From the NCBI GenBank assembly GCA_963743305.1, contig CAVUPH010000012.1, positions 64,001 to 128,000 on the forward strand: a stretch of DNA of 64,000 nt, written 5' to 3'. Each line of letters starts with the position of its first letter. Within the stretch, counting starts at the first letter, position 1. The DNA comes from an uncultured delta proteobacterium. Its GTDB lineage: Bacteria > Desulfobacterota > RBG-13-43-22. The position numbers were made by a program, and so were the translations under genes. The notes under the pieces were generated by a model. The model saw only the letters and a program-made list of their open reading frames with translations. It ran no database searches and was not told the origin of the DNA. This document shows, one piece after another, positions 17,148 through 64,000 of this stretch.

Positions 17148-18303
17148 ATGTTCCTTCATCTCAGCCCGGAACAACGGGCGCTGCAAAGACAGGTCCAGGC
17201 CTTGGTGGCGGAACGAATCGCCCCGTGGGCGGCGGAAATTGACGCCCGGGACGAGTTCCCTCAGGAAAGCTATCTGGCCTTCAAGGAGACCGGTTTGCTC
17301 AAGCTGTCCCTTCCCAGGGAGTACGGCGGGATAGCGGCGGATGCCACCACCCTCTGCCTGGTGATTGAGGAGATCTCCAAGGTCTCCCCGGCCTCGGCCT
17401 TGTTGGTTTTTCCCACCCAGGCCGTGATCCGAACCATCCGGGAAGTGGGCACGGAGGAGCAAAAGCAACGTTTCTTTTCCGCCATGTCGGCTGGGGACAA
17501 ACTGGCCGCCTTCTGTCTGACCGAGCCCAACTACGGCTCTGATGCCGGATCCCTGCAAACCCGGGCGAACTTGGAAGGTGATTACTATCTGGTGAACGGG
17601 TCCAAGACCTATATCACCCAAGGCCCACACGCTCATTTCTACCTGGTTTTTGTCCGAACCGGGCCCGGGAAAAGGACGGCCGGAATCAGCGGGCTTATTA
17701 TCCCGCGTGATACCCCGGGATTATCCTTCGGAAGGAAAGAGCGCAAAATGGGGTTGGGGGGATCGGTCACGGCCGAGATGATCTCTTAAAGATGTCCGGG
17801 TGCCCAAAGATAATCTGCTCCTCTCCGAGGGGCAGGGATGGACTATCCTTTCGCGGCACTCCAACCCCATGAGGGTCTGGGGGGCCGCTTCCATGGCCCT
17901 GGGAATCGCCGAAGGAGCTTACGAAGCCGCTCTGGAATTTGCCAAAAAAAGGGTCCAATTCCGACGAAAAATAGCGGCCTTCCAAAGCATCCGCTTCATG
18001 CTGGCCGACATGAAAATGTCCATCGAGGCCACCAAATCCCTGATCTACCGGACCGCGGACCTGATCGATTCCGGTGAAGGCACTTTCCGGGACATAGAAA
18101 CCCTCGTATCCATGTCCAAGTGCTATGCCTCGGACATGGCCATGAAGGTAACCATCGATGCCGTTCAAATCTTCGGCGGGGCCGGGGTTCTCAAAGGCTG
18201 CCCGGTGGAGCGGATGATGCGGGACGCCAAGGCGATTCAGATCTTCGATGGCAGCAACCAGATTCAACGGATGATCGTTTCGAAAAATATTATTTTAGAT
18301 TAA
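17148..18303 (+). CDS. Acyl-CoA dehydrogenase (single-base frameshift ~17784)
   Basis: FCLTEPNYGSD, NGSKTYIT, ERKMGL; EMI(+1)KDVRVP junction; GCPVERMMRDAKAIQIFDGSNQIQR. Confidence 0.85.
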
Positions 18304-30247: not shown

Positions 30248-31235
30248 TTAAAAACGAAAAAGGGAGGCCCCCCAGGTAAAACCGGCCCCAAAGGAGGTAG
30301 TCAGAACCAGGTCGCCTCGTTTGATCCGATCGGAGCGGACCCCTTCATCCAGGGCCGTGGGAATGGTGGCCGCCGAGGTGTTGCCGTACTTCTGAACGGT
30401 CAGGATCACTTTTTCCAGGGGAACTTCCATCAGCTTGGCCACGGCCTCGATGATCCGAAGATTGGCCTGGTGGGGAATAAACCAATCGATCTGCCGGCCG
30501 GAGCATTCCACCCTCTTCCAGGGCGGCTTTCGAGGCTTCCGCCATGGAACGGACGGCATGTTTGAAGACCTCATTGCCCTTCATCTTAACGTATTGGAGT
30601 CGCCGGTCGATCATCTCATGGGTCGGCGGGTTGAGCGAGCCGCCACCGGGGACATTCAGGAGTCCCCAAAGGTCGCCATCGGAATAGATCCGGGTGGAGA
30701 GGAGTTCTCCCTCCCCTTTTCGGGTGTGCTGCCCCAGAACGACCGCTCCAGCCCCGTCTCCAAAAAGCACGCAAGTATTTCGATCCTCAAAATCGGTTCG
30801 GTGCGAGACGATCTCCCCCCCCACCACTAAGACTCGTTGATGGGATCCGTCCTGCATAAACTTCTGGGCCACGGCCAGCCCGTATATAAATCCCGGGCAA
30901 GCGGCATTGATATCAAAAGCCACGGCCTTTTTGGCCCCGAGCCGGTGTTGGACTATGCAGCCCGCGGAAGGAGAGGGCATATCCGCCGTGGAGGTGCCGA
31001 TAATAATCAGGTCCAGTTCCTTCGGGAAAACGCCCGCCATTTCCAGGGCTTTTTCCGCGGCCGGGACCGCGAGATCGCTCAGGGCCTGCCCGGGCAGAAC
31101 CATCCTTCGTTCTTTAATTCCGGTCCGACTGACGATCCATTCGTTGGAGGTATTTACCAGGCCTTCGAAATAAGCGTTGGGGACGACCCGTTCGGGAATA
31201 AAGGATCCTGTCCCCAAAATGCGCACTTTCTTCAA
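30248..31235 (-). CDS. fabH: 3-oxoacyl-ACP synthase III (frameshift ~30510)
   Basis: [29 protein letters not shown]; second frame [22 protein letters not shown]. Confidence 0.85.
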
Positions 31236-31403
31236 TTGAATATCTTTCCCCCAATCGTCTTTGATGCTTTGAGAACTATTATCATTTGAAAAACTATTTA
31301 TCAAATTATTTTTTTAAGCAAATAAACCCTTTGACAGGGATCCTCCCGGGTTGCTAGATTTAGCCCTCAGGCGGAAATTTTAATGGGAATCGGAGGGGAT
31401 CGT

Positions 31404-49923: not shown

Positions 49924-51441
49924 ATGGCAGACAAACATTTAAAGTATTGTGTCAACAACGAGTGGAGGGAATCCAGCACCGGCAAATGTATGCCGGTGAC
50001 GAATTCCAGCACGGGAGAGATTATGGCGGAGGCCCCTTGCTGTACCGTTGACGAAGTGGAAAGCGCCGTGGCGGCGGCTAAAGCGGCCTTCCCGAAATGG
50101 TCGAGCAAGTCCGTGCAACAGCGAACCGAGTTAATGTTTCATTTCCGTCAGCTTCTGGAGGCCCACCTGGAGGAGTTGACTCTTTCGGTTTCCATGGAGC
50201 TAGGCAAAAACCTGGATGAAGCCCGCGGGGATATCCTTAAAAGCATCGAGGTGGTGGAACTGGCCTGCGCCGCTCCGGTGCTCATGCAGGGGGACGCCCT
50301 GATGAACGTTTCCACCGGGCACGATACGGTCATGTACCGCGAGCCGATCGGCGTTTTTGCGGGGATCGTTCCCTTCAACTTCCCGTCCATGATCCCCTTC
50401 GGCTGGATGATTCCCCTGTGTATCACCATGGGCAACACCTTTGTCCTCAAGGCGGCCAGTCTGACGCCTCAGACCGCGGTGCGGGTTTTGGAACTGCTCA
50501 TCCAAGCCGGAATGCCCCCCGGGGTGGTGAACCTGGTGACCTGCAGCCGCGATGAAGCGGGACTGCTTCTCAAGCACCCCGACGTCCGGGGGATTTCTTA
50601 CGTCGGGTCCACTGCAGTGGGCCGCCATATTTATGCCACGGCCGCCGCCCACGGCAAAAGAGTTCAAGCCCTTTGCGAGGCCAAAAACCACGCCCTGGTC
50701 ATGCGCGATGCCGCACTGGAGCGCTCCGCTTTAGGGATCATCAATTCAACCTTCGGCTGCGCCGGCATGCGCTGCATGGCCTTGCCGGTCCTCTGCGTGG
50801 AAGAGGCCTGTGCCGACGAATTCCTGGGTTACCTGATCAAGTTCGCCAAGGAGCGCAAGGTCGGATGTGCTTACCATCCTGATACGGAACTGGGACCGGT
50901 GGTCTCCGCGGAGCATAAGAAATCGATTATCGACTGGATCAACAAGGGGGTCGCCGAGGGCGCCGAACTGGTTCTCGACGGAAGGGATGTCGTCGTCCCC
51001 GGGTTTGAAAACGGTCACTACATCGGCCCCACCATTTTCGATCATGTCCAGCCGGGGATGAGCGTGGGCGATTCCGAGATTTTCGGTCCGGTGACCTGTA
51101 TCAAACGGGTCAAGGATTTCGAAGAAGGCCTGGCCATCATGAACGCCAGTCCCTTTGCCAACGGATCGGCCATCTTTACTCAAAACGGCTATTACGCCAG
51201 GGAGTTCGCCCGGAGGACCGACGCCGGTATGGTCGGGGTCAATGTAGGCATTCCCGTCCCTATCTCTTACTTCCCCTTTTCCGGACACAAGCAGTCCTTT
51301 TTTGGCGACCTGCATGTCATGGGCCGAGACGGGGTGGCCTTCTACACGGAATCCAAGTGTGTCACCTCCCGCTGGTTCGGTGAAGTAGAGAAAAAAGAGA
51401 CCAAGATCAGCACCTGGGAAGGGACGATTGCCCGGAAGTAA
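49924..51441 (+). CDS. mmsA: CoA-acylating (methyl)malonate-semialdehyde dehydrogenase
   Basis: PFNFPSMIP, AKNHALV, GCAGMRCMAL, EIFGPV, VGIPVP, SFFGDLH. Confidence 0.9.
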   Translation: MADKHLKYCVNNEWRESSTGKCMPVTNSSTGEIMAEAPCCTVDEVESAVAAAKAAFPKWSSKSVQQRTELMFHFRQLLEAHLEELTLSVSMELGKNLDEARGDILKSIEVVELACAAPVLMQGDALMNVSTGHDTVMYREPIGVFAGIVPFNFPSMIPFGWMIPLCITMGNTFVLKAASLTPQTAVRVLELLIQAGMPPGVVNLVTCSRDEAGLLLKHPDVRGISYVGSTAVGRHIYATAAAHGKRVQALCEAKNHALVMRDAALERSALGIINSTFGCAGMRCMALPVLCVEEACADEFLGYLIKFAKERKVGCAYHPDTELGPVVSAEHKKSIIDWINKGVAEGAELVLDGRDVVVPGFENGHYIGPTIFDHVQPGMSVGDSEIFGPVTCIKRVKDFEEGLAIMNASPFANGSAIFTQNGYYAREFARRTDAGMVGVNVGIPVPISYFPFSGHKQSFFGDLHVMGRDGVAFYTESKCVTSRWFGEVEKKETKISTWEGTIARK

Positions 51442-51553
51442 TAACCCGAGGATCGTCATTCCCCACCTTTTGTCGGAGTAGGACAAAAAAAGGAAAGGTG
51501 AAATTAATAACGGCTTTTTGCCATGCTGTCAATCCTGAAACAAGGAGAGTTTT

Positions 51554-52984
51554 ATGCACGTTACCAATAAAGACGTCATATTAGACGAACTGGTCTCTAT
51601 CGTAGGAAAGGATAATGCCACGGCTGCGAAACACATCCGCTATGCCTATTCCTACGATATGTCCTTCGTTACTCCTAAGATGCCCGACTATGTGGTCATG
51701 GCCACCACGGTGGAACAGATCCAGGCCGTCCTGAAAATGGCCAACCGGGAGAAGATCCCGGTGGTGCCCTACACGGCCGGAACCAACATCGGGGGTCTGA
51801 CCATCCCGGAACGGGGCGGAATCATCCTGGATCTGAAACGGATGAATAAGATCCTGAAAATCGACGTCGAATCCCATTATGCCGTGATAGAACCGGGGGT
51901 TTCCCATGGCCAATTGGCCAGCGCCCTCTATAAACATAACCTGCGCTTCGGCTGGCCGGTGGGTCCCCCCTCCGCCTCCGTATCCTCCTGCGCCATTTCC
52001 CACGGGATCGGGGGTTTAAACGCCCGCTACGGCTTGAACAGCCAGGAGATCACCAGTATGGAAGTAGTCCTGCCCACCGGCGAACTGGTGCGGGTGGGCT
52101 CCTGCGCCATTAACGCCGAGGCCTGGCATAGTGTGCTGCCCATGCCCCAACTGGACGGCTTGTTCAAAGGCTGGCTGGGAAGCACCGGCGTGGTCACCAA
52201 ACTGGGAATCACCGTTCATCCCATTCCGCCGGTTTTGAAAGTCTTCACCGTCTCCTGCGAGAACGTGGAAGACATGGTCTCCTACATGATGAATCTAAGC
52301 ACCTATGAGATCTGTGACGACCTGACGGCTGTCTCCTGGTGGCTGGCCCAGGTGCCCATCCCTTATCCCCTCAAACCCAAACCCGATTCCGCCCCGGAAT
52401 GGTTCAGTTTCGCCAATACCAATTCCTTTACCCAGAAGGAAAAGGAAGCCCGGGTGGAAATCTGGGAGACGGTGGTCGAGGAGGAGAAGAAGAAAGGGAC
52501 CTCCCTCCAGGTAACCCAATACCCGGAAGAGGCCCTGCGGGCCCGGACCCAACTGCCCAGCCAGATCGTGGGCTCCACCAAGAACTACTGCAAGCAGGGC
52601 GGCGCGGGCATTTCCTGGCCGGGCACCTTTACCCCGGCCAATAAATGGGCCCCGGTGTATAACGACTGGAAAAAAATCCTCATGGAGCACAACCTGTCCC
52701 CCTCGGTGCGCATGAGCATGTACCGGGGGGTCCACTACGGCATGCTCCGGGCCATGATTCCCTTCAATAAGAAAAGCCCCCAGGAAACGGAAAACGCCCG
52801 GCAGGCCATTGTCGAGTGTCTCAAGGTCGATCTGGATCACGGCGGCATGCCCTACAAGCCCCCGGTGGACTTTGCCCGGGAGATCAACCAGCGGGCACAT
52901 CCGGGGTACCTTTCCCTGCTTAGACAGGTAAAAAAGCTCCTGGATCCCAACGATATTATGAATCCCGGAAAGCTGGGAATATAG
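51554..52984 (+). CDS. FAD-binding oxidoreductase (GlcD/VAO family)
   Basis: IILDLKRMNKI, VIEPGVS, EVVLPTGELVRVGS, LDPNDIMNPGKL. Confidence 0.88.
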   Translation: MHVTNKDVILDELVSIVGKDNATAAKHIRYAYSYDMSFVTPKMPDYVVMATTVEQIQAVLKMANREKIPVVPYTAGTNIGGLTIPERGGIILDLKRMNKILKIDVESHYAVIEPGVSHGQLASALYKHNLRFGWPVGPPSASVSSCAISHGIGGLNARYGLNSQEITSMEVVLPTGELVRVGSCAINAEAWHSVLPMPQLDGLFKGWLGSTGVVTKLGITVHPIPPVLKVFTVSCENVEDMVSYMMNLSTYEICDDLTAVSWWLAQVPIPYPLKPKPDSAPEWFSFANTNSFTQKEKEARVEIWETVVEEEKKKGTSLQVTQYPEEALRARTQLPSQIVGSTKNYCKQGGAGISWPGTFTPANKWAPVYNDWKKILMEHNLSPSVRMSMYRGVHYGMLRAMIPFNKKSPQETENARQAIVECLKVDLDHGGMPYKPPVDFAREINQRAHPGYLSLLRQVKKLLDPNDIMNPGKLGI

Positions 52985-53108
52985 GTGCATCCATTTTTCT
53001 GAGAATTTGTATCTAACAATTAAACCGGACCCATCATTGCATCTCACTATGGGTTTTTTATTTCAGCCAAAAATTTTAAAAGTTTTTGGCTAGGTATTGG
53101 AGGTTGGT

Positions 53109-54431
53109 ATGCATTGGAACATTCCTTCGCTGGAAGATCTGGAAGACGCCATCTGGCGGTGCACGGCCTGCGGGACCTGTAAAGTAACCTACGAATACGG
53201 CCCTCCCTCCCGCTGTCGGGAAATCTGCCCTTCGGGGACGGAATTTGGCTTTGAAGGCTTTATGGCCTCCAAGGGAAAAATCGCCTTTGCCCGGGGAATC
53301 CTCAGCGGCGAACTGGAATGGGACGACGACCTGGCCGAGGCCGTTTACCGCTGCACCCTCTGCGCCGGCTGTCAGACCCAGTGCCAGCTCGACCATAAGC
53401 CCCATATCCCGGAAATTTTTGAAGCCTTGCGACGGAAGGCCGTGGAGGCCGGCGCCGGCCCTCTGCCCCAGCAGAAGGTCATCGCCCAGTCGCTGAAGAG
53501 TTACGACAATCCCTACCAGGGCCCGCGGCGGGTCCGCTGGGACTGGACCCGGCCCTTCAAAAAAGAAAAACGGCCCATCAAGGATATCAATAAGGAAGCG
53601 GCCCCGGTTTTGTACTTTGTGGGGTGTACCGGCGCCTACAACCTCCCGGCCCGAGTCCTGCCTCAGGCCACGGCCTCGGTCTTTCAGAAACTGGGGGTGG
53701 ATTTCGGCATCCTGGGTGAAAACGAACTCTGCTGCGGCTCAACGGCCATGCGGTTGGGAGATGCCGAGGCCTTTAAACGGGTGGCCGAAGCCAATCTGCA
53801 GACCTTTAAAACACTGCATGAAACTCGGGGGGTGGAGACGATCGTCACCGCCTGCGCCGGCTGCTACCGGGCCATCCTCAAGGATTATTCCCTGGCCGAT
53901 GAATACGAAGACCTGATGAAGGGAATTCGAGTCATCCATGTGACGCAGTTTCTCAGCGGACTGCACCAGGCCGGTCGACTGACTTTTTCCCGGCCGGTCC
54001 CCATGAAAGTCACCTACCATGACCCCTGCCACGCGGGCCGGCATTTGACCAAATACCTGGTGGACGAAGACGGCTCCCAGCTCTGGCCCGGGGCCTATAT
54101 CAACCTGAACGAAGAGGACTGCCTGTACGATATTCCCCGGGACCTTTTGAAGGCCATTCCCGGCATCGAGCTGGTCGAGATGGAACGGACCCGGGCCAAT
54201 TCCTTCTGCTGCGGAGGCGGCGGCGGGGTCATGACCGGCTTTCCGGACTGGGCCCAGCGCAATGCCGCCCTTCGCGTCCAGGAAGGGTTGGAAACCGGCG
54301 CCGAACATATGGTCTCCATCTGCCCTTTCTGCCATTTTAATTTGAACCAGGGCGCCCAGGCCATCGGCAGCACCATGAAACTTTACGATCTGATCGAGTT
54401 GATTGACCAGGCGCTTCCCGAAAAGTCATAA
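53109..54431 (+). CDS. Fe-S oxidoreductase, GlcF/HdrD-like CCG protein
   Basis: CTACGTC, CTLCAGCQTQC, LCCGS, YHDPCH, CCGGGGG, CPFC. Confidence 0.88.
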   Translation: MHWNIPSLEDLEDAIWRCTACGTCKVTYEYGPPSRCREICPSGTEFGFEGFMASKGKIAFARGILSGELEWDDDLAEAVYRCTLCAGCQTQCQLDHKPHIPEIFEALRRKAVEAGAGPLPQQKVIAQSLKSYDNPYQGPRRVRWDWTRPFKKEKRPIKDINKEAAPVLYFVGCTGAYNLPARVLPQATASVFQKLGVDFGILGENELCCGSTAMRLGDAEAFKRVAEANLQTFKTLHETRGVETIVTACAGCYRAILKDYSLADEYEDLMKGIRVIHVTQFLSGLHQAGRLTFSRPVPMKVTYHDPCHAGRHLTKYLVDEDGSQLWPGAYINLNEEDCLYDIPRDLLKAIPGIELVEMERTRANSFCCGGGGGVMTGFPDWAQRNAALRVQEGLETGAEHMVSICPFCHFNLNQGAQAIGSTMKLYDLIELIDQALPEKS

Positions 54432-54569
54432 ATCAGATGGCCATCTTCAATTTAGCTTAGCCTGAAAATCGATAGGAGGGGGTGATTTATCCTGCATTAA
54501 CCGATTTTGGTAAAAAGGGCCTAGTGATTCATTCACTTAAACTTTTTTTGATGACTACGAGGAGGGGAT

Positions 54570-55886
54570 ATGGAAACCAAAAAAGGTACGCCGGCAGAAC
54601 AGAATAATGAACCCCAAGGGGTCAATCGTCGTGATTTTTTAAAGACCACCTTGGCCGGGGCGGCAGGACTCTCCCTGAGTTCCTGGGTGGTTACTCCGTT
54701 CACCTACGGAGCTGAAAAACCAATTAAAATCGGCATGATCAATGAGTTGACTGTGGGGGCCACCGAATATGGCTATTGGTTGTCCAAAACCGGCCATGCC
54801 GCCATCAAGAAACTTAATGCCGAAGGCGGCATTGCGGGACGTAAAGTTGAAATAATCGAGTACGACACCAAGTTCAACCCGGCCCAAGGGGCCCAGATGT
54901 TCAAGAAGCTGGCCCTGGAAGATAAGGCGGATTTTATCATGGGGTCTATCCATTCCGGAATTCAACTAGCCTGTTTCCCTCTGGCCGAACAGTTCAAGAT
55001 CCCCTACTTCGGCGGCGGGGCCATGGCTTCTGCTTTGACCGGAAAGGCGGCCGTTCCCTACTACATCCGTATCCACACCCATGCCCTGATGCAGGCCGTG
55101 GCCGGCTGGGAATGGGCCTTCAAAAATCTGGGTAAAAAATGGGCTTTGGTGGTGGCCGATTATGCCTGGGGCCATTCACTGGAAGAAGAGTTCGGCAAAC
55201 GGGTCCAGGCGGCAGGAGGCAAGGCCCAAGGGATCCGCGCCCCCCAGACCACCAAGGATTTCATCCCCTTCCTGCAGAAAATCGACCCGGATATCGACGT
55301 CCTGTTTACCGCCTTCCTCAATCCGGCCGCCCTGGGCGTCATGCGCCAATCCGTAGAATTGGGGCTGCATAAGCGGATGAAGCGCTTTACCGTCATCTGC
55401 TGCACCGAGGGCATCAGCCAGGAGGTGGTCGGGAAAGAATCCGCCGGGGCCTATTATGAGGAATACCATCCCCGTTATTTCAACCAGGTGCCAAAGGAAC
55501 TTCAGGTCTATGAGCGGGCCTACCGCCAGGCCGTGGGGGTCACCGACGACGGAAAAGACACCAAGGATCCCAAGATCACTTCGGCCCACTCCCACATGTG
55601 GTCCATGTGGACCTCTCCCTACATGATTAAATTGGGGGTGGAACAGACGGGTTGGAAAGACGCCTCTAAAAACGCCGATTTTATCAAGGCCGTGGTTAAG
55701 ATGAAGCTCAAGGCCGGGCCCTGGACCCCCCAGGGTGATTTAATTATGCGGGAAGAAGATCATCAGGGCTTTCACGATCATTACATCTCGGAAGTGACGC
55801 CGGACTTGAAACTGAAGGTCCTGCTGCGCATCCCTAAAGAAAAAGTCATGTATGAACCGCAGGTTGATTTGAGGACCAAGCTCTAA
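54570..55886 (+). CDS. Liv-type ABC substrate-binding protein, Tat signal
   Basis: NRRDFLK; LNAEGGIAGRKVE; ADYAWG; MREEDHQ. Confidence 0.88.
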   Translation: METKKGTPAEQNNEPQGVNRRDFLKTTLAGAAGLSLSSWVVTPFTYGAEKPIKIGMINELTVGATEYGYWLSKTGHAAIKKLNAEGGIAGRKVEIIEYDTKFNPAQGAQMFKKLALEDKADFIMGSIHSGIQLACFPLAEQFKIPYFGGGAMASALTGKAAVPYYIRIHTHALMQAVAGWEWAFKNLGKKWALVVADYAWGHSLEEEFGKRVQAAGGKAQGIRAPQTTKDFIPFLQKIDPDIDVLFTAFLNPAALGVMRQSVELGLHKRMKRFTVICCTEGISQEVVGKESAGAYYEEYHPRYFNQVPKELQVYERAYRQAVGVTDDGKDTKDPKITSAHSHMWSMWTSPYMIKLGVEQTGWKDASKNADFIKAVVKMKLKAGPWTPQGDLIMREEDHQGFHDHYISEVTPDLKLKVLLRIPKEKVMYEPQVDLRTKL

Positions 55887-55910
55887 TCGCCGAGCCTTTA
55901 GCCTATTGTC

Positions 55911-55950
55911 GACCGGTTTCCCTTTCCCGCCCGGGGGAGAGAAACCGGTC
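55911..55950 (+). terminator. Intercistronic hairpin after SBP gene (terminator or mRNA stabiliser)
   Basis: GACCGGTTTC...GAAACCGGTC stem. Confidence 0.55.
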
Positions 55951-55969
55951 TCAACCCGTCCCTAAGGAG

Positions 55970-56830
55970 TTGCCCACCATGCTTTCCAATGTAGCCGTGG
56001 CGGTTATAAACGGCGTCATCTGGGGTTTGATCATGGCCCTCATCGCCCTGGGTTTGAACATGATTTTCGGCCTGCTGCACATTATCAACATGGCCCACGG
56101 AGTCCTCTACATGCTGGGGGCCGTGGTGGCCTGGTATATTATCAATCTGACCGGCAACTTCTGGATCGCCCTGATCCTGGCCCCGGTTGTAGTCGGGGTG
56201 ATCGGGATGGCCATAGAGCGGGGGCTCCTCCGCACCATTGAAGACCAGCCCATCACCACCATCATCTGCACCTTCGGCATCATGCTGGCCGCCCAGCATC
56301 TGGTCTTCATGACCTTTGGGGGCACACCCCAACGGATCAATATTCCCATTGAGGGACGATTTCAGCTTTTTCAATTGCAATATCCCCTGATGCGGGTGGT
56401 CATCGCCGCTATCTCCATCGGGGTCATGATCGCCCTTTGGTTTCTCTTAAACAAGACCAAGTACGGGCTCTGGATGCGGGCCGTAGTCCAGGACCGAGAG
56501 ATGGCCGTGGGCATCGGAATTCCGGTACACCGGGTCTATATGTGGACCTTTGTCCTGGGATCGGCCCTAGCGGCCTTCTCCGGAGTTTTGGCGGCCCCCA
56601 TTGTCTATGTGGATTTCATGATGGGCCGGGAAATCCTGATCATGGCCTTCATCATCGTCATCGTGGGGGGCATGGGAAATCTGGAGGGATCGGTCCTGGC
56701 AGCAATTATTATCTCCCTGATCCAGGGGGTGGGCTCGTTATTCGTTCCACCGGCCATGGCTACCGTCTTTGCCCTGGCCTTCATGATCATTGTCCTTTTG
56801 TTTCGCCCTCAAGGGCTTTTTGGAGAATAG
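55970..56830 (+). CDS. Branched-chain ABC permease (LivH-like)
   Basis: ALGLNMIFG, NMAHG, GGMGNLEG, RPQGLFG. Confidence 0.9.
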   Translation: MPTMLSNVAVAVINGVIWGLIMALIALGLNMIFGLLHIINMAHGVLYMLGAVVAWYIINLTGNFWIALILAPVVVGVIGMAIERGLLRTIEDQPITTIICTFGIMLAAQHLVFMTFGGTPQRINIPIEGRFQLFQLQYPLMRVVIAAISIGVMIALWFLLNKTKYGLWMRAVVQDREMAVGIGIPVHRVYMWTFVLGSALAAFSGVLAAPIVYVDFMMGREILIMAFIIVIVGGMGNLEGSVLAAIIISLIQGVGSLFVPPAMATVFALAFMIIVLLFRPQGLFGE

Positions 56831-56839
56831 AGGTCGGTC

Positions 56840-57790
56840 GTGTCCGGTCATCCGCAAAAATCAACCGGGTTTATCCTGGGTTTCTCGATGGTACTCTTGG
56901 TCCTGATCGCTGTGCCTTTTTTTATGGGGCTCTTTTACCAAACCTTCCTGACCGAAGTGCTGGTTTGGGTCCTCTTTGCCGTCTCCTTTGACCTGATCTT
57001 CGGCTATACGGGCCTGCTCAGTTTCGGACAAGCCCTTTTCTTTGGTCTGGGGGCCTATTGCATCGCCATCCCCGTTTCGAAATTCGGCCTGGGACCTGCA
57101 CCGGCTTTTATGCTTTCCATCGTGGTCCCCATGCTCTTTGCCTGGTTTGTGGGCTATTTTTCCGTAAAACTGTCCGGGATCCACTTTGTTATTATTACCC
57201 TGATCTTTGCCCTAATCGGCAGCACCATCGGGGAAACCTGGCCTTCCCTGACCGGCGGCGCTGACGGTCTGACCATCCCCCTCAGCCCCCTGCAAATAGG
57301 CCCTTTAAAAATCGATTTCGTCGATATCAAGACCAACTATTATCTGGTCCTCATCGTGGTGGCCCTCTGCTTCCTGTTGTTGAGACGGATGGTGCAGTCG
57401 CCCCTGGGCAAGGTCTTTATCGCCATTCGGGAAAACGAGGATCGAGCTCGACTGATTGGCTACAATGTCCAGCGCTACAAGCTGCTGGCCTTCGTAATTG
57501 CCGGCGGTCTCAGCGGCCTAGCCGGAGGGTTGTACGGAATTACCTTGAAGTACGCCTCAGCCAATTTTCTACACTGGGGGGTCTCCGGCCACGCGGTCGT
57601 CTATACCATTGTGGGAGGCATGGGGACCCTTTTCGGGCCGGTGTTGGGAACGGCTATCATCATGTCGCTGGAACATTATTTGGTAGACTACATGCAGGGC
57701 ACCGACCTGGTGATCGGGATGGTCCTGGTCTTTATGGTGCTGGTCGCCCCCAAGGGTCTGGTGGGTCTCCTGCAAAGAAAAGGGAAATAA
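56840..57790 (+). CDS. Branched-chain ABC permease (LivM-like)
   Basis: GYTGLLSFGQA, TGGADG, AIRENE, GGMGTLFGP. Confidence 0.9.
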   Translation: MSGHPQKSTGFILGFSMVLLVLIAVPFFMGLFYQTFLTEVLVWVLFAVSFDLIFGYTGLLSFGQALFFGLGAYCIAIPVSKFGLGPAPAFMLSIVVPMLFAWFVGYFSVKLSGIHFVIITLIFALIGSTIGETWPSLTGGADGLTIPLSPLQIGPLKIDFVDIKTNYYLVLIVVALCFLLLRRMVQSPLGKVFIAIRENEDRARLIGYNVQRYKLLAFVIAGGLSGLAGGLYGITLKYASANFLHWGVSGHAVVYTIVGGMGTLFGPVLGTAIIMSLEHYLVDYMQGTDLVIGMVLVFMVLVAPKGLVGLLQRKGK

Positions 57791-58543
57791 GTGAACCCAG
57801 CAGCTCCGGAATCCATTTTGACGGTAGAGGAGGTCAGCAAGTCCTTCGGGGGTCTGCTGGCCATAAACAATGCCCATCTTTCCGTAAAGAAGGGGGAACT
57901 GCGGGCTTTGATCGGACCGAACGGGGCCGGCAAAACGACCCTGCTCAATCTGATTACCGGCATTTACCCGGTCTCCCGAGGACAGATCTATTTCAAGAAT
58001 GAAGAAATTACCCATCTGACCCCGGATCGGATTTCCCGCAAGGGGATTTCCCGGACCATGCAGATCACCAGTCTGTTTTCCGGGTTGACGGTATTTGAAA
58101 ATATCTGGGCGGCGGTCCAGTCCCGGAAGAAATTCTTCAATCCCTTTATTCGGGCCTCTAAATGTCAGGATGTCCGGGACAAGACGCATCAGATGCTGGA
58201 ACTCACCGGGCTTCAGGACAAGGCCGACCTGATCTGTTCCGAACTGGCTTACGGGGAACAGCGCATCCTGGAAATGGGCATCGCCCTGAGTACCAGCCCC
58301 GACCTGCTCCTGCTTGATGAGCCCACGGCCGGCCTGAATACCCAGGAGTCCATGGCCTTGGTCAGAAAAATGAGAACCATGCTTTCCGGCCAGACCATTG
58401 TACTGGTGGAACACGACATGGGGGTCGTAATGGAACTGGCCGACCGGATTTCGGTGCTTCATTACGGGGAAATCTTGGCCGAAGGCGCCCCGGATGAAAT
58501 CAGGAATAACGAAGAGGTAAAAAAAGTCTATTTGGGGCATTAG
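57791..58543 (+). CDS. Branched-chain ABC ATPase (LivG-like)
   Basis: GPNGAGKT, LAYGEQR, LLDEPTAG, VEHDM. Confidence 0.92.
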   Translation: MNPAAPESILTVEEVSKSFGGLLAINNAHLSVKKGELRALIGPNGAGKTTLLNLITGIYPVSRGQIYFKNEEITHLTPDRISRKGISRTMQITSLFSGLTVFENIWAAVQSRKKFFNPFIRASKCQDVRDKTHQMLELTGLQDKADLICSELAYGEQRILEMGIALSTSPDLLLLDEPTAGLNTQESMALVRKMRTMLSGQTIVLVEHDMGVVMELADRISVLHYGEILAEGAPDEIRNNEEVKKVYLGH

Positions 58544-58544
58544 T

Positions 58545-59246
58545 ATGTTAACCATGAAAGAAGTGAACTGTTTTTACGGAAAAAGCCATGTCCTAAACGA
58601 CACCTCCCTGAAGATTCGGGAAAAGGAACTGGTGGGCCTGGCCGGGCGTAACGGGGTCGGTAAGACCACCACACTGAAAGCCATTATGGGCCTGGTCCCG
58701 CCCAAAAGCGGCGAGGTCCGTTTTGACCAATGCACCCTTTCCAAATTGCCGGCTTATCAAGTCCCCCGCCAAGGCATTGCTTATGTCCCCCAGGGGCGAC
58801 ACCTTTTCCCCAAATTGACGGTCATGGAGAACCTTCGGATCCCTATCGTCCAGGGGACCTTCGATCCCGACGCGCTGGAAGAAGTCTTTGACTACTTCCC
58901 CCGTTTAAAGGAAAGGCTCAAACAAAAAGCCGGCACCCTTTCCGGAGGGGAACAGCAGATGTTGGCCGTCGGTCGGGCACTGATCATCAAGCCCCGATTG
59001 ATTTTGTTGGATGAGCCTACGGAAGGACTCATGCCTTTGCTGGTTCAGGCCATCAGCCAGACCGTAAAAGCCATCAACGCCAAAGGAACCACAATCCTGC
59101 TAGTGGAACAGAACCTCAAAACCTTGAAAGACGTTTGTCATCGTATTTATATTATGGAAAAAGGCTCCATTGTTTATCAGGGGACCCCGGCTGACCTGGA
59201 GGCCGCCCCGGAGATCCAGGATCGTTATTTGAGTGTCAAAGTCTAG
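58545..59246 (+). CDS. Branched-chain ABC ATPase (LivF-like)
   Basis: GRNGVGKT, LSGGEQQMLA, LDEPTEGL, LVEQN. Confidence 0.92.
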   Translation: MLTMKEVNCFYGKSHVLNDTSLKIREKELVGLAGRNGVGKTTTLKAIMGLVPPKSGEVRFDQCTLSKLPAYQVPRQGIAYVPQGRHLFPKLTVMENLRIPIVQGTFDPDALEEVFDYFPRLKERLKQKAGTLSGGEQQMLAVGRALIIKPRLILLDEPTEGLMPLLVQAISQTVKAINAKGTTILLVEQNLKTLKDVCHRIYIMEKGSIVYQGTPADLEAAPEIQDRYLSVKV

Positions 59247-60096
59247 ATTTTTACATCCGTTGTTCGAGACAATTTCTCAGAACAATGGATGTAAAAATCT
59301 ACGTGGGAGTACGTTCGTTATTAAAAAATCTTCATACTGGGTCCTGGTCGGTCTGGCCCTTATTCTGGCAGGGCGCCTGGAAGCAGAGGAATTCGGGATC
59401 GTTCACTTCAAAAACCAGGAATTTCTGGTTAAGCGCGATCCCCTGAGCCGAAGTCCGGTGATTATTAGGGGGAAAGACCGGCCGATCATCACCCTGAAAG
59501 GGGCACTAACCCGTTCCCGGGTTGTTCAAAGCGGCGCCTTGGTCGCTGATCGACTAAACCCGCTGCTTCCACTCACCGCGAAGCAGATCAAATTTAAATC
59601 CGCCGAGAAGATCGACGGCCTTTGGTATGTCAGCTTCTGGCAGACCGCCGGGGGCCTTATCGTTTTTGGATCGTCGTTGGGTTATAGTGTGGACCGCAGG
59701 GGGCGTATCCTCTCCACCGGATCGGTCATTTACCCGGCCATTGAGGTCCCAACCGCCGTCAAGGTTGATCGGAAGGCGGCTTTGGAAACATCGACACGGT
59801 CCATTAAAAATTTTCAGACACTGAAATATAAACTCTTCGCCGAGAATGTCATCATCTATCCGGATCGGAAGGCCAACCCTGTTCGGTTTTATCAGGTTTA
59901 CGCCTTCAACTTTTTCCCTCCTGCGGAGGCCCTGCACCCGGCTTCAGCGGAAGCGGGTTGGGGTATTTTCGTAGATACCCAGACCGGAAAGATCGTGGAT
60001 CGCCAGACTCTTTTTAAACCCTTGGGCTGTTGTGTCCCGGAGGAAGGCCCTCCCCTGGACACCCAAGAACTTTATAAATCTCAAATCGGAAAATAA
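59233..60096 (+). CDS. Exported hypothetical protein resembling an FTP/PepSY peptidase propeptide (start uncertain)
   Basis: Signal-like segment; WYVSFWQTAGGLIVFGS, FVDTQTGKIVD; no HExxH domain. Confidence 0.5.
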   Translation: MSKSRFLHPLFETISQNNGCKNLRGSTFVIKKSSYWVLVGLALILAGRLEAEEFGIVHFKNQEFLVKRDPLSRSPVIIRGKDRPIITLKGALTRSRVVQSGALVADRLNPLLPLTAKQIKFKSAEKIDGLWYVSFWQTAGGLIVFGSSLGYSVDRRGRILSTGSVIYPAIEVPTAVKVDRKAALETSTRSIKNFQTLKYKLFAENVIIYPDRKANPVRFYQVYAFNFFPPAEALHPASAEAGWGIFVDTQTGKIVDRQTLFKPLGCCVPEEGPPLDTQELYKSQIGK

Positions 60097-60121: not shown

Positions 60122-61135
60122 ATGACTTTAAAAGAACGGGTGCTGAACCGTCTTCAGGGAAAAGAAGTGGACAAAACCCCGGTGGGGTGTACGACAACCT
60201 ACGGGGTGGTGGATTTCATGAAAAAATGCGGCTTCGAGCGACCCCAGGCCGATACCGATCCGCTGGCCATGACCGAACTGGCCATGGCCGGGCACACCTA
60301 TGGCGGCTTCGAGTGGGTCAAAGCCATGGGTTGGGACATCGTGGCCTTGAGTGAGGCCCTGGGCTGCGAGTTGGGAACACCGCGGATCGACCGGCAGTAT
60401 TATATCAATTCCTTCCCCTACGCGGAAGGAGTGGATCGTCTGGAATTCCCCTCCGACTTCCTCTCCCGCGGCCGCTTCCCGGCTTTTAAAGAACATCTGA
60501 AACTCCTTAAAGATCGGGTGGGCGATCGGATGGCCATTTTCGGTGAAACCGAAGGGGCCTTTACCTCTGCCGCCAATCTGGTGGGTCCCGAACAATTTAT
60601 CAAATGGGCCATCAAAAAGCCCGATCAGGTGGCCAAAACGTTGGAAGTCACCAAACAGGCGGCCGTCGCCGCCGCCAACTTTGCCTTTGATAACGGAGTT
60701 GATTTTTTCGTCTTTGCCGAACCGACTTCCGGACCGGCCCTGCTGAATCCCCGGATCTATGAGAAGCTGGTGTTGCCCGTGGAAAAAGAGATCGTCAGCC
60801 AAATCAAAGGTCCGGTGGTGTTGCACATCTGTGCCGATACCGATCCGATTATGGATTTCATGTGTCAGACCGGAGCGGCCGGGATCAGTATCGAGGAAAA
60901 GGCCGATTTGAAGCGGGCCGTGGAAATCGCGCATCGCTATGGAGTCAAGGTCTTCGGCAATGTGGCCACGGCCACCACCATTTTTAACGGCACTCCGGAG
61001 GAGGTTTACCGGGAAGCGATCACCGCCCTCACCCATGGGACAGACTTCCTTTGCCCGGGTTGCGGCATCGCCCCCGGCTCTCCGCTGGAAAATATCGTCC
61101 AGATGAAAAAGGCCCGGGATGATTTTTTTAAATAG
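60122..61135 (+). CDS. MtaA/CmuA-family methylcobamide methyltransferase (UroD fold)
   Basis: EALGCE, AEPTSG, VLHICAD, GNV, PGCGIAPGSPLEN (Zn-binding His/Cys/Cys). Confidence 0.9.
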   Translation: MTLKERVLNRLQGKEVDKTPVGCTTTYGVVDFMKKCGFERPQADTDPLAMTELAMAGHTYGGFEWVKAMGWDIVALSEALGCELGTPRIDRQYYINSFPYAEGVDRLEFPSDFLSRGRFPAFKEHLKLLKDRVGDRMAIFGETEGAFTSAANLVGPEQFIKWAIKKPDQVAKTLEVTKQAAVAAANFAFDNGVDFFVFAEPTSGPALLNPRIYEKLVLPVEKEIVSQIKGPVVLHICADTDPIMDFMCQTGAAGISIEEKADLKRAVEIAHRYGVKVFGNVATATTIFNGTPEEVYREAITALTHGTDFLCPGCGIAPGSPLENIVQMKKARDDFFK

Positions 61136-61174: not shown

Positions 61175-61856
61175 ATGGCTTCAGAAGAAAGAACCCAAGA
61201 GATCATAAAGGGACTTCAGCAGGCGGTAATTGAGTTTGACGAGGACAAGACCAGGGAATTGGCGCAGGCCTCCATCGATGAAGGGGTGGATCCTTTTCTG
61301 GCCACCATGGAAGGTCTGGCTGAAGGAATGATTCAGGTGGGCGATCTGTATAATAAAAAAGAGTACTTTGTCTCGGAACTCCTGTTGTGCGCCGACGCCC
61401 TTTATGCGGGATTGGACTTACTCAAACCGGCTATTGTGGCCTCCGGAAGAATCAGTGAGGCCAAAGGCTCCATCGTGCTTGGGAGTGGTGGAAGGCGATG
61501 TCCACGACATCGGTAAGAATTTGATCAAGATGATGTTCGATGTGGCCGGCTGGACCGTCTACGATCTGGGAAAGGATGTTCCTTTGGAAAAATTCGTCGA
61601 AGAACAACTGCGGACCGATTCGGATATCGTCGGTCTTTCGGCGTTGATGACCACCAGCATGATCAGCATGCCGGAAATCGTCAAGAAGCTGAAAGAGAAA
61701 AATCCCAAGGTTCGGATTATGCTGGGCGGCGCTCCGATAACGCCGGAAACCGTGGAAAAGTACGGCGCCGACGGGTACGCCAAGGACGCGGGGACGGCCG
61801 TTGATGAAGCCATCAAATTGATTAAAATGTTGAGGACCGAGGAAAAGACCAAATAG
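61175..61856 (+). CDS. Corrinoid (B12-binding) protein (frameshift ~61481)
   Basis: EYFVSELL cap; VEGDVHDIGKN, DLGKDVP, LSALMTT, GGAP, GADGYA. Confidence 0.88.
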
Positions 61857-61871: not shown

Positions 61872-64000
61872 ATGGCGAGTGGTGAAAGTGAAAAATGCCT
61901 GGTCATTTTTCAGCCCTCAGGATGCCGAGGATATGTCGATAGAGGCAAGACCCTTAAACAGGCCTCCGTGGCCCTGGGCGTGGATATCGAGGGGGTCTGC
62001 GGTGAACAGGCCATTTGCGGAACCTGCAAGGTCCGGATTGAGGAAGGGGAATTTGAAAAGTACGGTATCCGTTCCGGCCGGGAGAGCATCTCGGCTATGG
62101 GCCCCTCTGAAAGAAAATTTTTTAATTTGCGCCAGGTGGATGAAGGCTATCGTCTGGCCTGTCAGGCCCAGATCCTGGACGACGTGGTTATTTTCGTCCC
62201 GGAAGAAAGCCGCATGGGGAAGCAGGTGGTCCGCAAGGCCGCTACCTCGCGGCCCATGGCCGTCAAACCGGTGGTCCGAAAATATACCCTGTCCCTGGTC
62301 AAAGCCACCCTGGAGGATAATGTCGGAGACTGGGAACGGGTGACCGCGGCCCTGGAGACCCAATACGGGCTCAAGGACCTGACCATCGATTATGAAGCCC
62401 TCATGTTCTTGCAGGACCTGGTCCGGCAAGGAGAGTGGAAGATTACCGTTTCGGTCTGGCACGGCCAGGAGGTCATCCGGGTTGAGCCGGGGTTTAATGA
62501 AAAAGGCTACGGCCTGGCGGTCGACGTGGGCACCTCCACGGTGGCCGGATATCTATGTGATCTGTCCGACGGCACGGTGGTGGCCACCGCCTCCATGATG
62601 AATCCCCAGATCGTCTACGGGGAAGATGTCATGTCCCGGATCAGCTACACCATGACCAATCCCGAAGGTCTGGAGATCTTAAACCAGGCCATTATCGACG
62701 GCCTGAACAATATCGCCGCCGAGGTGGCCGAAAGCGCCGGCATCAAACGCCAGGATATCCTGGATATGTCCCTGGTGGGCAATACCTGTATGCATCATAT
62801 TTACCTGAACATCAATCCCCGCTATATCGGTCGTTCCCCCTTTCCCCCCAGTCTACATCATTCCCTGGACGTCAAGGCGCGCGATTTCGGCTTCAAGATC
62901 CCCCAGGAAAAAGAGCGGGAAGAGAAGGGCAAGTACGCCCCTTGTCGGGTGGAATGTCCGGCCGGGGTCAATGTAGACGACTTTTTATATCTCATCGCCC
63001 AACGCAAATTTAAGGAGGCCCTGGAATTGGTCCGCCTTTCCTACCCCTTTCCCGGGGTCTGCGGACGGGTCTGCACCCATCCCTGTGAACAAATTTGTGA
63101 AAGGGGAAAAGTGGATGAGCCCATCTCCATTCGGGCGGCCCATCGTTTCCTGGGCGATTTTGAATTGACTGCGGGAAGGGAAAAGGCTACTCCGGTGGAA
63201 CTGAAAAAAGAGGCCCCCATCGCCGTGGTCGGATCAGGACCGGCCGGTCTGGCCTGTGCCTATGACCTGATCAATCGAGGATATCCGGTAACGGTTTTTG
63301 AAGCCCAGTCCCAGGCCGGAGGAATGATGCGTTACGGCATCCCGGAATATCGGCTGCCTAAACGTATTTTGGATGATGAAATCCGTTATATTGAAGAACT
63401 GGGCCTGGAGATCAGGACCAATACCCCGGTAAAAAACCTGAAGGATCTTTTCGATCAGGAGTATAAAGCCGTCTTCCTGGCCACCGGGACCTGGAAAAGT
63501 CAAAAATTAAATGTTCCCGGTGAGGAAAGCCCGGGGGTGATGATGGCCCTCGACCTGCTCCGGGAGGTCAATTCAGGGGCGAAGGTCGAATTAAGCGGAA
63601 AAGTAGCCGTGGTCGGAGGCGGCAGCGTGGCCGTTGACGCGGCTCGAATGGCCCAACGGCTAGGTGCCCGGGAAGTCCATCTGATCTGCCTGGAGTCCGA
63701 CGACCTCACCTGCCAAGACCGGATGCCGGCCCAGGATTTGGAAATCGACCAGGCCCGCGAAGAGGGTGTGATCGTTCATCCCTCTCTGGGCGTCGGCACC
63801 ATCGTGGTCGACCAAGGCCGGGTCAGCGCCGTGGAAACCATAGGCTGTGTATCGGTCTACGATGACCGGGGACGGTTCGCGCCGCAGTTTTCCGAAGAAC
63901 CGGCTCTCCCTATTGCCGTGGAGACCGTCATTGTGGCCATAGGCCAGAGGGCCGAAGAAGATCTCTTTCCCGATTTGGCCCGCCAGCCTTCGGGCATCTT
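61872..64000 (+). CDS. RACo/RamA-type corrinoid reductive activator (2Fe-2S + ASKHA) fused in frame to a GltD/Nfn-like FAD/NAD(P)H oxidoreductase; runs off window
   Basis: Manual translation: CGEQAICGTC...RLACQ, VDVGTSTV, NPQIVYGEDVMSRI, GNTCMHH, LDVKARDFG, then APCRVECPAG, CGRVCTHPCEQIC, GSGPAG, GGMMRYGIP, GGGSVAVD, VAIGQ; no stop before window end. Confidence 0.85.
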   Translation, partial: MASGESEKCLVIFQPSGCRGYVDRGKTLKQASVALGVDIEGVCGEQAICGTCKVRIEEGEFEKYGIRSGRESISAMGPSERKFFNLRQVDEGYRLACQAQILDDVVIFVPEESRMGKQVVRKAATSRPMAVKPVVRKYTLSLVKATLEDNVGDWERVTAALETQYGLKDLTIDYEALMFLQDLVRQGEWKITVSVWHGQEVIRVEPGFNEKGYGLAVDVGTSTVAGYLCDLSDGTVVATASMMNPQIVYGEDVMSRISYTMTNPEGLEILNQAIIDGLNNIAAEVAESAGIKRQDILDMSLVGNTCMHHIYLNINPRYIGRSPFPPSLHHSLDVKARDFGFKIPQEKEREEKGKYAPCRVECPAGVNVDDFLYLIAQRKFKEALELVRLSYPFPGVCGRVCTHPCEQICERGKVDEPISIRAAHRFLGDFELTAGREKATPVELKKEAPIAVVGSGPAGLACAYDLINRGYPVTVFEAQSQAGGMMRYGIPEYRLPKRILDDEIRYIEELGLEIRTNTPVKNLKDLFDQEYKAVFLATGTWKSQKLNVPGEESPGVMMALDLLREVNSGAKVELSGKVAVVGGGSVAVDAARMAQRLGAREVHLICLESDDLTCQDRMPAQDLEIDQAREEGVIVHPSLGVGTIVVDQGRVSAVETIGCVSVYDDRGRFAPQFSEEPALPIAVETVIVAIGQRAEEDLFPDLARQPSGI

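Follow-up and report, generated by a model that had tools for sequence, protein, structure and literature searches.

ATP-driven corrinoid activators of the RACE family, among them RACo (AcsV) of Carboxydothermus hydrogenoformans (3ZYY/4C1N) and the activating enzyme (AE) of the Acetobacterium dehalogenans O-demethylase, are encoded beside corrinoid proteins and methyltransferases. RACo combines an N-terminal [2Fe-2S] domain, a linker, and middle and C-terminal ASKHA domains carrying nucleotide motifs. Flavodoxin hydroquinone has reportedly served as a donor for the Acetobacterium enzyme, although no such paper turned up in our literature search. According to published accounts (PMC6739815), RACo/AE enzymes depend on an external donor of low potential, e.g., ferredoxin or flavodoxin. 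In vitro work relies on Ti(III) or Eu(II), and PMC7448270 describes the natural electron donor of some ATP-driven activator systems as unknown. The window analyzed here is a 64,000-nucleotide stretch from an uncultured delta proteobacterium (assembly GCA_963743305.1, contig CAVUPH010000012.1, positions 64,001 to 128,000). It ends within a gene whose product is, by architecture and context, a RACE activator of the [2Fe-2S] (RACo/AE) type but, unlike RACo and AE, contains a 494-residue flavin/Fe-S insert, joining donor and activator on one chain. This protein is probably a self-supplying RACo-type activator, in which an internal, nonbifurcating wire would lead electrons from NAD(P)H through FAD and Fe-S clusters to Co(II) with the assistance of ATP; NAD(P)H as the built-in electron source is the best-supported part of what we infer.

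The open reading frame, first noted in a preliminary description made from the window alone, starts at 61872 on the plus strand and is open at the window edge; in the genome the stop codon is reached 1324 bases further on, at 65324. Positions beyond 64,000 are given below as window equivalents. The parts of the gene are as follows:

61872..64000, on to window-equivalent 65324 (L001:3873-7325), plus strand: fused activator gene, 1150 residues (open reading frame and genome sequence).
61935..62171, plus strand: [2Fe-2S] ferredoxin domain with C43, C49, C52, and C97 (Pfam Fer2; the four Cys are invariant in alignment A1, 119 sequences).
62244..62900, plus strand: RACo linker, then the opening portion of the middle (ASKHA) domain; motifs VDVGTSTV and GEDVMSRI (Pfam, 3ZYY alignment, motifs).
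62901..62942, plus strand: N-side tether, 14 residues, low model confidence (alignment, AlphaFold2 model).
62943..64000, to window-equivalent 64331, plus strand: inserted circularly permuted GltD-like module (alignments to 9BOV, 9N5U, 8OH5, and 4YLF; fold search).
63141..63143, plus strand: His424, at the position of Lys170 in StnC/NfnA and of the NfnB Glu ligand (alignment, ligand counts).
63507..63944, plus strand: NAD(P)H-binding subdomain of the CLE class, motif at 63687-63695 (alignment, trees).
Window-equivalent 64317-64331, plus strand: end of the insert with RCLHC (genome sequence past the window).
Window-equivalent 64332-64382, plus strand: C-side tether, 17 residues (genome sequence past the window).
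Window-equivalent 64383-65324, plus strand: rest of the middle domain and C-terminal ASKHA domain (genome sequence past the window).

Pfam assigned Fer2 (residues 22-100), RACo_linker (125-210), Raco_middle (213-345 and a second stretch), Fer4_20 (346-433), Pyr_redox_2 (450-744), and RACo_C_ter (877-1142) to the 1150-residue protein, with RACo_linker, Raco_middle, and RACo_C_ter (PF17650, PF17651, and PF14574) all above cut-off. Residues 11-328 align to residues 6-322 of RACo (3ZYY) and residues 839-1141 to 335-629. Because the alignment holds on both sides of the insert, about 494 residues (344-837) have been added, between positions matching about RACo residues 322-335, and no part of the activator has been lost. 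The in-frame switch previously placed after LDVKARDFGFKI at about 62900 agrees with these domain boundaries, and the domain insertion then proposed is borne out past the window, where the activator resumes. The LPxIxxFVGAD segment described as missing is indeed absent at the junction but is found after the insert, at residues 850-860. A short motif borders the insert at both ends (DFGFKI before, GWGIKI after), whereas plain relatives, which lack the insert, have one copy. An AlphaFold2 model of the fused protein had a mean predicted local distance difference test score (pLDDT) of 83 and a predicted template modeling score (pTM) of 0.61, with the tethers (residues 341-352 and 824-836) under pLDDT 50; in Foldseek searches the insert matched NfnA/StnC and the remainder RACo (3ZYY).

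The RACo half of the original RACo/RamA label stands, in the form of the [2Fe-2S] RACo/AE type. RamA-type activators have two [4Fe-4S] clusters and no N-terminal [2Fe-2S] domain; assignment to this type was rejected given the N-terminal Fer2 domain and a TIGR04270 score of 115 bits against a cut-off of 500. Identity with AcsV/RACo proper was also rejected: NCBIfam NF040756 scored 420 bits against a cut-off of 800, a shortfall due in part to splitting of the match by the insert, and the cobalt-binding Ser398 of RACo is replaced by Ala902. The likely client differs as well, being a small DxHxxG corrinoid protein rather than the CoFeSP served by RACo. Sequence databases label the fused protein by domain families only, and no study of an activator-flavoprotein fusion was found in the literature searched, which covers few subscription papers, so that a passing mention could be missed.

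The architecture proved to be shared among homologs from uncultured anaerobic bacteria, a check called for in the preliminary description. A protein search scored 7997 candidates, and all of the best 120 carry RACo_C_ter together with Fer4_20; 119 of these are 1097-1188 residues long and 60-98% identical. Among the best 150 representatives at 50% identity, a full-length match was seen in one only, which indicates one compact family. The fused layout was present at 28 of 41 genome loci (two frameshifted, one broken by Ns, and some cut by a contig end). All fused-locus records are metagenome-assembled genomes, mostly of Thermodesulfobacteriota/Deltaproteobacteria and Chloroflexota, with one protein labeled Peptococcaceae; within the phylum of the present genome the fused form occurred in 8 of 401 genomes searched, six of them, this one included, from its own family. 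A search for longer fused forms (2014-5000 residues) gave one match, without a GltD-like module. Alignment A1 comprises the present protein (P0001) and 118 homologs, which are kin and not independent samples; P0054, a partial sequence, and P0008, short at its N terminus, were excluded. All ASKHA and activator motifs are kept in these fused proteins, and the degree of conservation is the same in the [2Fe-2S] domain and the ATPase. The tether sequences are the least conserved part of the protein despite their fixed lengths (14 residues on the N side in 117/119, 17 residues on the C side in 113/119). Ratios of nonsynonymous to synonymous substitution rates (dN/dS; simple Nei-Gojobori, eight pairs from 10 genes) were 0.04-0.13 in the activator halves and, at 0.09-0.23 in the insert segments, show that purifying selection acts on the insert as well.

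These observations bear on the possibility of an assembly chimera or a functionless passenger insertion, to which we give almost no weight. The assembly does contain a frameshift 400 bases upstream, and no run was found in which this strain's reads span the locus: none contained half of the sequence words searched. Among the relatives' contig pieces shown, none bridged the 3′ junction, and none covered the upstream frameshift cleanly. However, the 5′ junction is spanned by a relative's contig from another sequencing run, the 119 near-full-length homologs at 60-98% identity come from several collections, and the layout recurs at the 28 loci noted above. The presence of both parts in all 120 best homologs, together with purifying selection on the insert, argues that the fusion is not an assembly artifact, and the chimera is already refuted by independent assemblies. 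Two short exact pieces of the gene occurred in one RNA run, which is no demonstration of transcription.

The best solved matches to the insert, by sequence and fold, are NfnA of Caldicellulosiruptor and Thermococcus and StnC of Sporomusa. The insert shares with StnC (Sporomusa ovata, 8OH5) and NfnA of Bfu-type NfnABC (9BOV, 9N5U) a permuted 2×[4Fe-4S]/FAD/NAD(P)H fold that has RCLxC at its end. In NfnB this motif belongs to an N-terminal stretch (4YLF residues 15-44) that aligns behind the FAD domain of the insert, which is thus circularly permuted, as are StnC and NfnA. NfnB/NfnL (4YLF, 5JCA) and GltD have a homologous fold, FAD site (GSGPAG in the insert), and conserved Arg, but they are unpermuted, carry RCLxC at the N terminus, and need a partner subunit. 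Identity with either was rejected on scores below the curated cut-offs, the permuted topology, and the presence of His at the position of the NfnB Glu ligand. The earlier description of a GltD/Nfn-large-subunit-like module is therefore correct for the fold and too broad for the type, which is that of StnC and NfnA. Unlike those two proteins, the insert is joined to an ATPase and not to NuoG-like and bifurcating HydBC-like subunits, has His for Lys at a proximal-cluster position, and, in the present copy, has CLE for YRR in its nucleotide-binding motif. The permuted GltD-like module was also found fused to many unrelated partners.

Numbering transferred from PMC7596348 and PMC11829005 assigns C362, C401, C405, and H424 to the predicted proximal [4Fe-4S] cluster. 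The predicted distal cluster would have C358 and C409 as ligands and be completed by C817 and C820 of the C-terminal RCLxC, both present in 119/119. All eight residues are present in every fused protein of the alignment, apart from C409 (118/119). At position 424, where all 119 fused proteins have His, 36 free modules have Lys (28), Glu (3), His (3), Arg (1), or a gap (1). His424 is likely to bind iron at the proximal site; if so, this well-studied flavin/Fe-S fold would include clusters with three types of ligand at that position, His being the third. The permutation brings both chain ends to the distal (exit) cluster, which explains how the module could be inserted into a loop and puts the exit beside the activator. 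A shuttle domain would have to pick up its electrons there, where 14 residues on one side and 17 on the other separate the module from the activator body.

The topology also speaks to the proposal, made in the preliminary description, of flavin bifurcation. The inserted FAD would then act like that of NfnB: of its two electrons, the one at low potential would go to the activator and the one at high potential to another acceptor. The fold is homologous to that of NfnB (E 8e-70 to 4YLF), the Arg beside the flavin, which in the bifurcating subunit is hydrogen-bonded to N5, is kept (R494 in 118/119), and NADH alone would be a marginal donor. Yet the insert has the topology of StnC and NfnA; according to PMC10482914 and PMC11829005, these modules are NADPH entry units that pass electrons singly, and the StnC FAD is reported as nonbifurcating (PMC10482914) though Arg239, the equivalent of R494, is present. 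The proximal ligand position is His and not Glu, no NfnA/NfnS-like gene was recognized among the recurrent neighbors, of which part were annotated, and published potentials, considered below, do not require bifurcation. We have not retained this proposal and judge it quite improbable. The nonbifurcating electron-entry role of StnC and NfnA would, by analogy, be shared by the insert.

The nucleotide-binding subdomain falls into two classes. The triplet after the second Rossmann motif is YRR in 61/119 fused proteins and CLE in 58/119 (one SLE), and the present copy has CLE. YRR contacts the NADP(H) phosphate in NfnB and DsrL-2, and the NAD(H)-specific DsrL-1 enzymes have other triplets, which begin with Ser/Thr and include Glu at the third position (PMC7596348). 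The YRR class is thus likely to be of the NADPH type and the CLE class to use NADH. Trees of 22 fused and 18 free modules were calculated under LG+G4, with no mixture model, and quick trees were inspected before the approximately unbiased (AU) tests. For the Fe-S/FAD part, the fused proteins formed a single clade (support 99/100), whereas in the tree of the nucleotide subdomain (residues 546-691) the fused CLE proteins joined free CLE modules (100/100). A fused-only clade was rejected for this subdomain (AU p 4e-67; p 2e-5 with the motif columns removed). In the present copy the foreign segment covers about residues 594-700: over residues 634-673, P0001 averages 19% identity with 60 fused YRR proteins and reaches 55% with the best-matching free CLE module, and residues 354-513 are 63-74% identical to the fused YRR proteins. 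P0060 carries YRR within the CLE clade, and in P0055 a CLE insert is found on an activator whose closest company in the tree is a YRR protein. The history of the family is likely to include a minimum of one subdomain swap and one reversion, with some exchange of cassettes, and trade of this subdomain between specificity classes suggests that nucleotide choice matters. The best free CLE module, P0177 (445 residues, Lys at the ligand position, outside the AU set), has a nucleotide subdomain that nests within the fused CLE clade; its segment may have been received from a fused gene, in which case exchange also ran from fused to free modules.

In the proposed self-supplying activator, hydride would pass from NAD(P)H (likely NADH in the present copy) to FAD, and single electrons would then move through the proximal cluster (three Cys and His), the distal cluster, and the mobile [2Fe-2S] domain to cobalt, the final acceptor being Co(II) of the neighboring corrinoid protein. 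As described for the activating enzyme of Acetobacterium, ATP hydrolysis would raise the potential of the Co(II)/Co(I) couple. The standard potential of NAD(P)H is -320 mV; in cells the NADPH couple is more negative, and the route from NADPH would run downhill. In the Acetobacterium system, the activator [2Fe-2S] cluster is at -330 mV, the corrinoid is at -530 mV alone and -250 mV with activator and ATP, and one ATP is used per electron (PMC6739815). Published values are -340 mV for the RACo cluster (PMC4934906) and about -280 mV for NADH in cells (PMC9304861). By these published potentials, NAD(P)H can feed the path without bifurcation. With NADH, electron transfer to the [2Fe-2S] cluster would be uphill and the route overall to the corrinoid about 30 mV downhill, so that an NADH-type copy would rely on the pull of ATP. 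A more specific version of the proposal is that a single chain, by way of a His-ligated [4Fe-4S] relay, forms super-reduced Co(I) from nothing more than NADH and ATP, needing neither ferredoxin nor flavodoxin nor bifurcation, and that the family is retuned between NADPH and NADH by swapping the subdomain cassette; we advance this as a serious but tentative possibility.

Flavin-fed reduction of cobalamin has precedents of unrelated fold. Methionine synthase reductase is fed by NAD(P)H and flavin, and methionine synthase reactivation is driven by S-adenosylmethionine and not by ATP. PduS likewise reduces cobalamin with electrons from NAD(P)H and flavin and has no ASKHA ATPase. The inserted module might similarly reduce the corrinoid directly, either rescuing Co(III) to Co(II) or handing electrons over from the distal cluster, with the [2Fe-2S] domain bypassed. 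PduS is an NADH/flavin/2×[4Fe-4S] corrin reductase (PMC2982820), the module is placed on the middle domain, and the cobalt-binding Ser398 of RACo is Ala here. The four [2Fe-2S] Cys, however, are invariant in a domain as conserved as the ATPase, and plain sister activators equally lack Ser398, which shows that loss of the Ser is not tied to the insert. Such a bypass seems improbable.

Activator-only trees placed five plain proteins (L028, L032, L035, L036, and L042) among the fused ones, and a fused-only activator clade was rejected (25 vs. 11 rows, AU p 2.5e-4). The simplest reading is that the insert was gained once and likely lost several times. The plain protein at L042:9977-12007 has 17 extra residues between FGFK and GIRI at the insertion site, which look like a deletion scar, and L028 has a clean junction there. 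A candidate partial deletion, L027, was rejected because its gap is a run of Ns.

A possible split version of the fused design was found in the same genome. Contig C28 (L043:7444-14592, minus strand) carries a cluster of MtrH, free flavoprotein, MtaA, corrinoid protein, and plain RACo genes. The flavoprotein (653 residues) consists of NADH_4Fe-4S and a permuted GltD-like module with YRR and with Lys at the ligand position; with 35% identity to the insert and a distant place in the tree, it was discarded as the source. Many of the other loci checked for this layout were short; it occurred in 3 of 37 plain-activator loci from other genomes (L080, L081, which is cut before MtrH, and L087; all YRR) and, of 66 insert-less loci from metagenomes, in one (L185, CLE). 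The C28-type cluster is a candidate split version, and such clusters lend slight support to the idea that an NAD(P)H flavoprotein serves these activators. In two further loci with a plain activator (L082:2232-12914 and L191:1-10055), a NuoF/HydB-like gene (by Pfam for L082), flanked by NuoE-like and NuoG-like genes, lies directly upstream of the MtaA, corrinoid protein, and plain RACo genes; farther upstream are genes that we take, from N-terminal motifs, to be AcsE-like and two CoFeSP-subunit-like genes.

Several of these results weigh against an internal electron supply from NAD(P)H. The nesting of plain activators within the fused clade means that the insert is dispensable, this genome retains four plain activators, and plain activators serve the same operon types as fused ones. 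The split layout is rare, and L080, L081, and L087 represent one genus. The putative NADH assignment of the CLE class is drawn by analogy with DsrL-1, and transfer from NADH (about -280 mV) to a cluster at -330/-340 mV is 50-60 mV uphill. The AlphaFold2 model does not fix the placement of the module relative to the activator (pTM 0.61, tethers below pLDDT 50). Moreover, NAD(P)H and ATP were no substitute for Ti(III) citrate in work on denitrifier extracts (PMC7448270); the RACE-like protein of that organism may be of either plain or fused architecture. A complex prediction for the [2Fe-2S] domain (residues 5-113) and the insert (350-826), run with Fe-S clusters and without FAD, scored 0.31 against a mark of 0.32 and favors neither side.

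Some of the same evidence could be accommodated if the module were active but stood outside the chain, reducing soluble ferredoxin or flavodoxin, or sensing the NAD(P)H pool and gating the ATPase, while the activator was fed externally. The low-confidence tethers and the pTM of 0.61, the repeated loss of the insert, a flavodoxin-like match in the genome (one, weak and partial), and the occurrence of the module with many unrelated partners all fit this explanation. Against it, the module is held inside the ATPase fold by tethers whose lengths are fixed, its exit cluster lying at the junction, His424 is fixed in the fused family only, and the modules of the solved relatives feed clusters of their own complexes. 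We consider an outside role unlikely and favor the self-supplying activator. The fused enzyme makes it testable whether ATP hydrolysis alone lifts electrons from the level of NAD(P)H to Co(I), with NADPH-type, NADH-type, and insert-less versions as natural controls. If the self-supplying reading is true, B12 methyltransferases could be kept active without spending reduced ferredoxin, and the enzyme would be a reagent for running them without chemical reductants.

The genes adjoining the fused activator gene are as follows:

60122..61135, plus strand: MtaA/URO-D-family methyltransferase, 337 residues, with H-x-C and GC motifs (Pfam URO-D, E 1.8e-58).
61175..61856, plus strand: small corrinoid protein with a DVHDIG motif (Pfam B12-binding_2 and B12-binding, in two frames).
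Window-equivalent 65339-66370, plus strand: second MtaA-like gene, beginning 14 bases past the activator stop (genome sequence past the window).

The MtaA and corrinoid genes named in the preliminary description do adjoin the activator upstream, separated by 39 bases from each other and by 15 bases from the activator, but a single additional base near 61476-61481 breaks the reading frame of the corrinoid gene. This base is absent in 5/5 relatives whose alignments were inspected and is probably a sequencing or assembly error. The upstream MtaA-like protein is likely the partner methyltransferase of the fused activator, and the small corrinoid protein is likely its client. Among 29 fused loci, a corrinoid gene was found in 27, an MtaA-like gene in 27, and an MtrH-like gene in 13. 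Promoter and terminator scans at the locus gave nothing specific, and no match to RnfC above cut-off was found in this genome (90% complete), a result that was not weighed.

Farther upstream on the same strand, window positions 49924-59246 encode an FAD-linked oxidase with a CCG/HdrD-like partner (Pfam), along with what we take to be a gene resembling those of aldehyde dehydrogenases and a branched-chain amino acid-type ABC transporter. Several fused loci have the oxidase/CCG pair as neighbors, which may hint at the substrate. Between the transporter and the MtaA-like gene lies a 287-residue reading frame without a Pfam match (59233-60096), which is present in six close loci. Apparently truncated or split genes occur at window positions 17148-17789 and 30345-31304, presumably acyl-CoA dehydrogenase-like and FabH-like, and in a plain activator gene on C14 (L045:7283-9137); they are in line with single-base errors in the assembly. 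Activators are also fused to other domains: a C-terminal URO-D/MtaA-like domain in proteins of about 850-910 residues (P0129, P0137, P0143, P0175, and P0192), a cNMP-binding domain in a protein of 784 residues (P0122), and PAS domains in one of 4519 residues (P0271).

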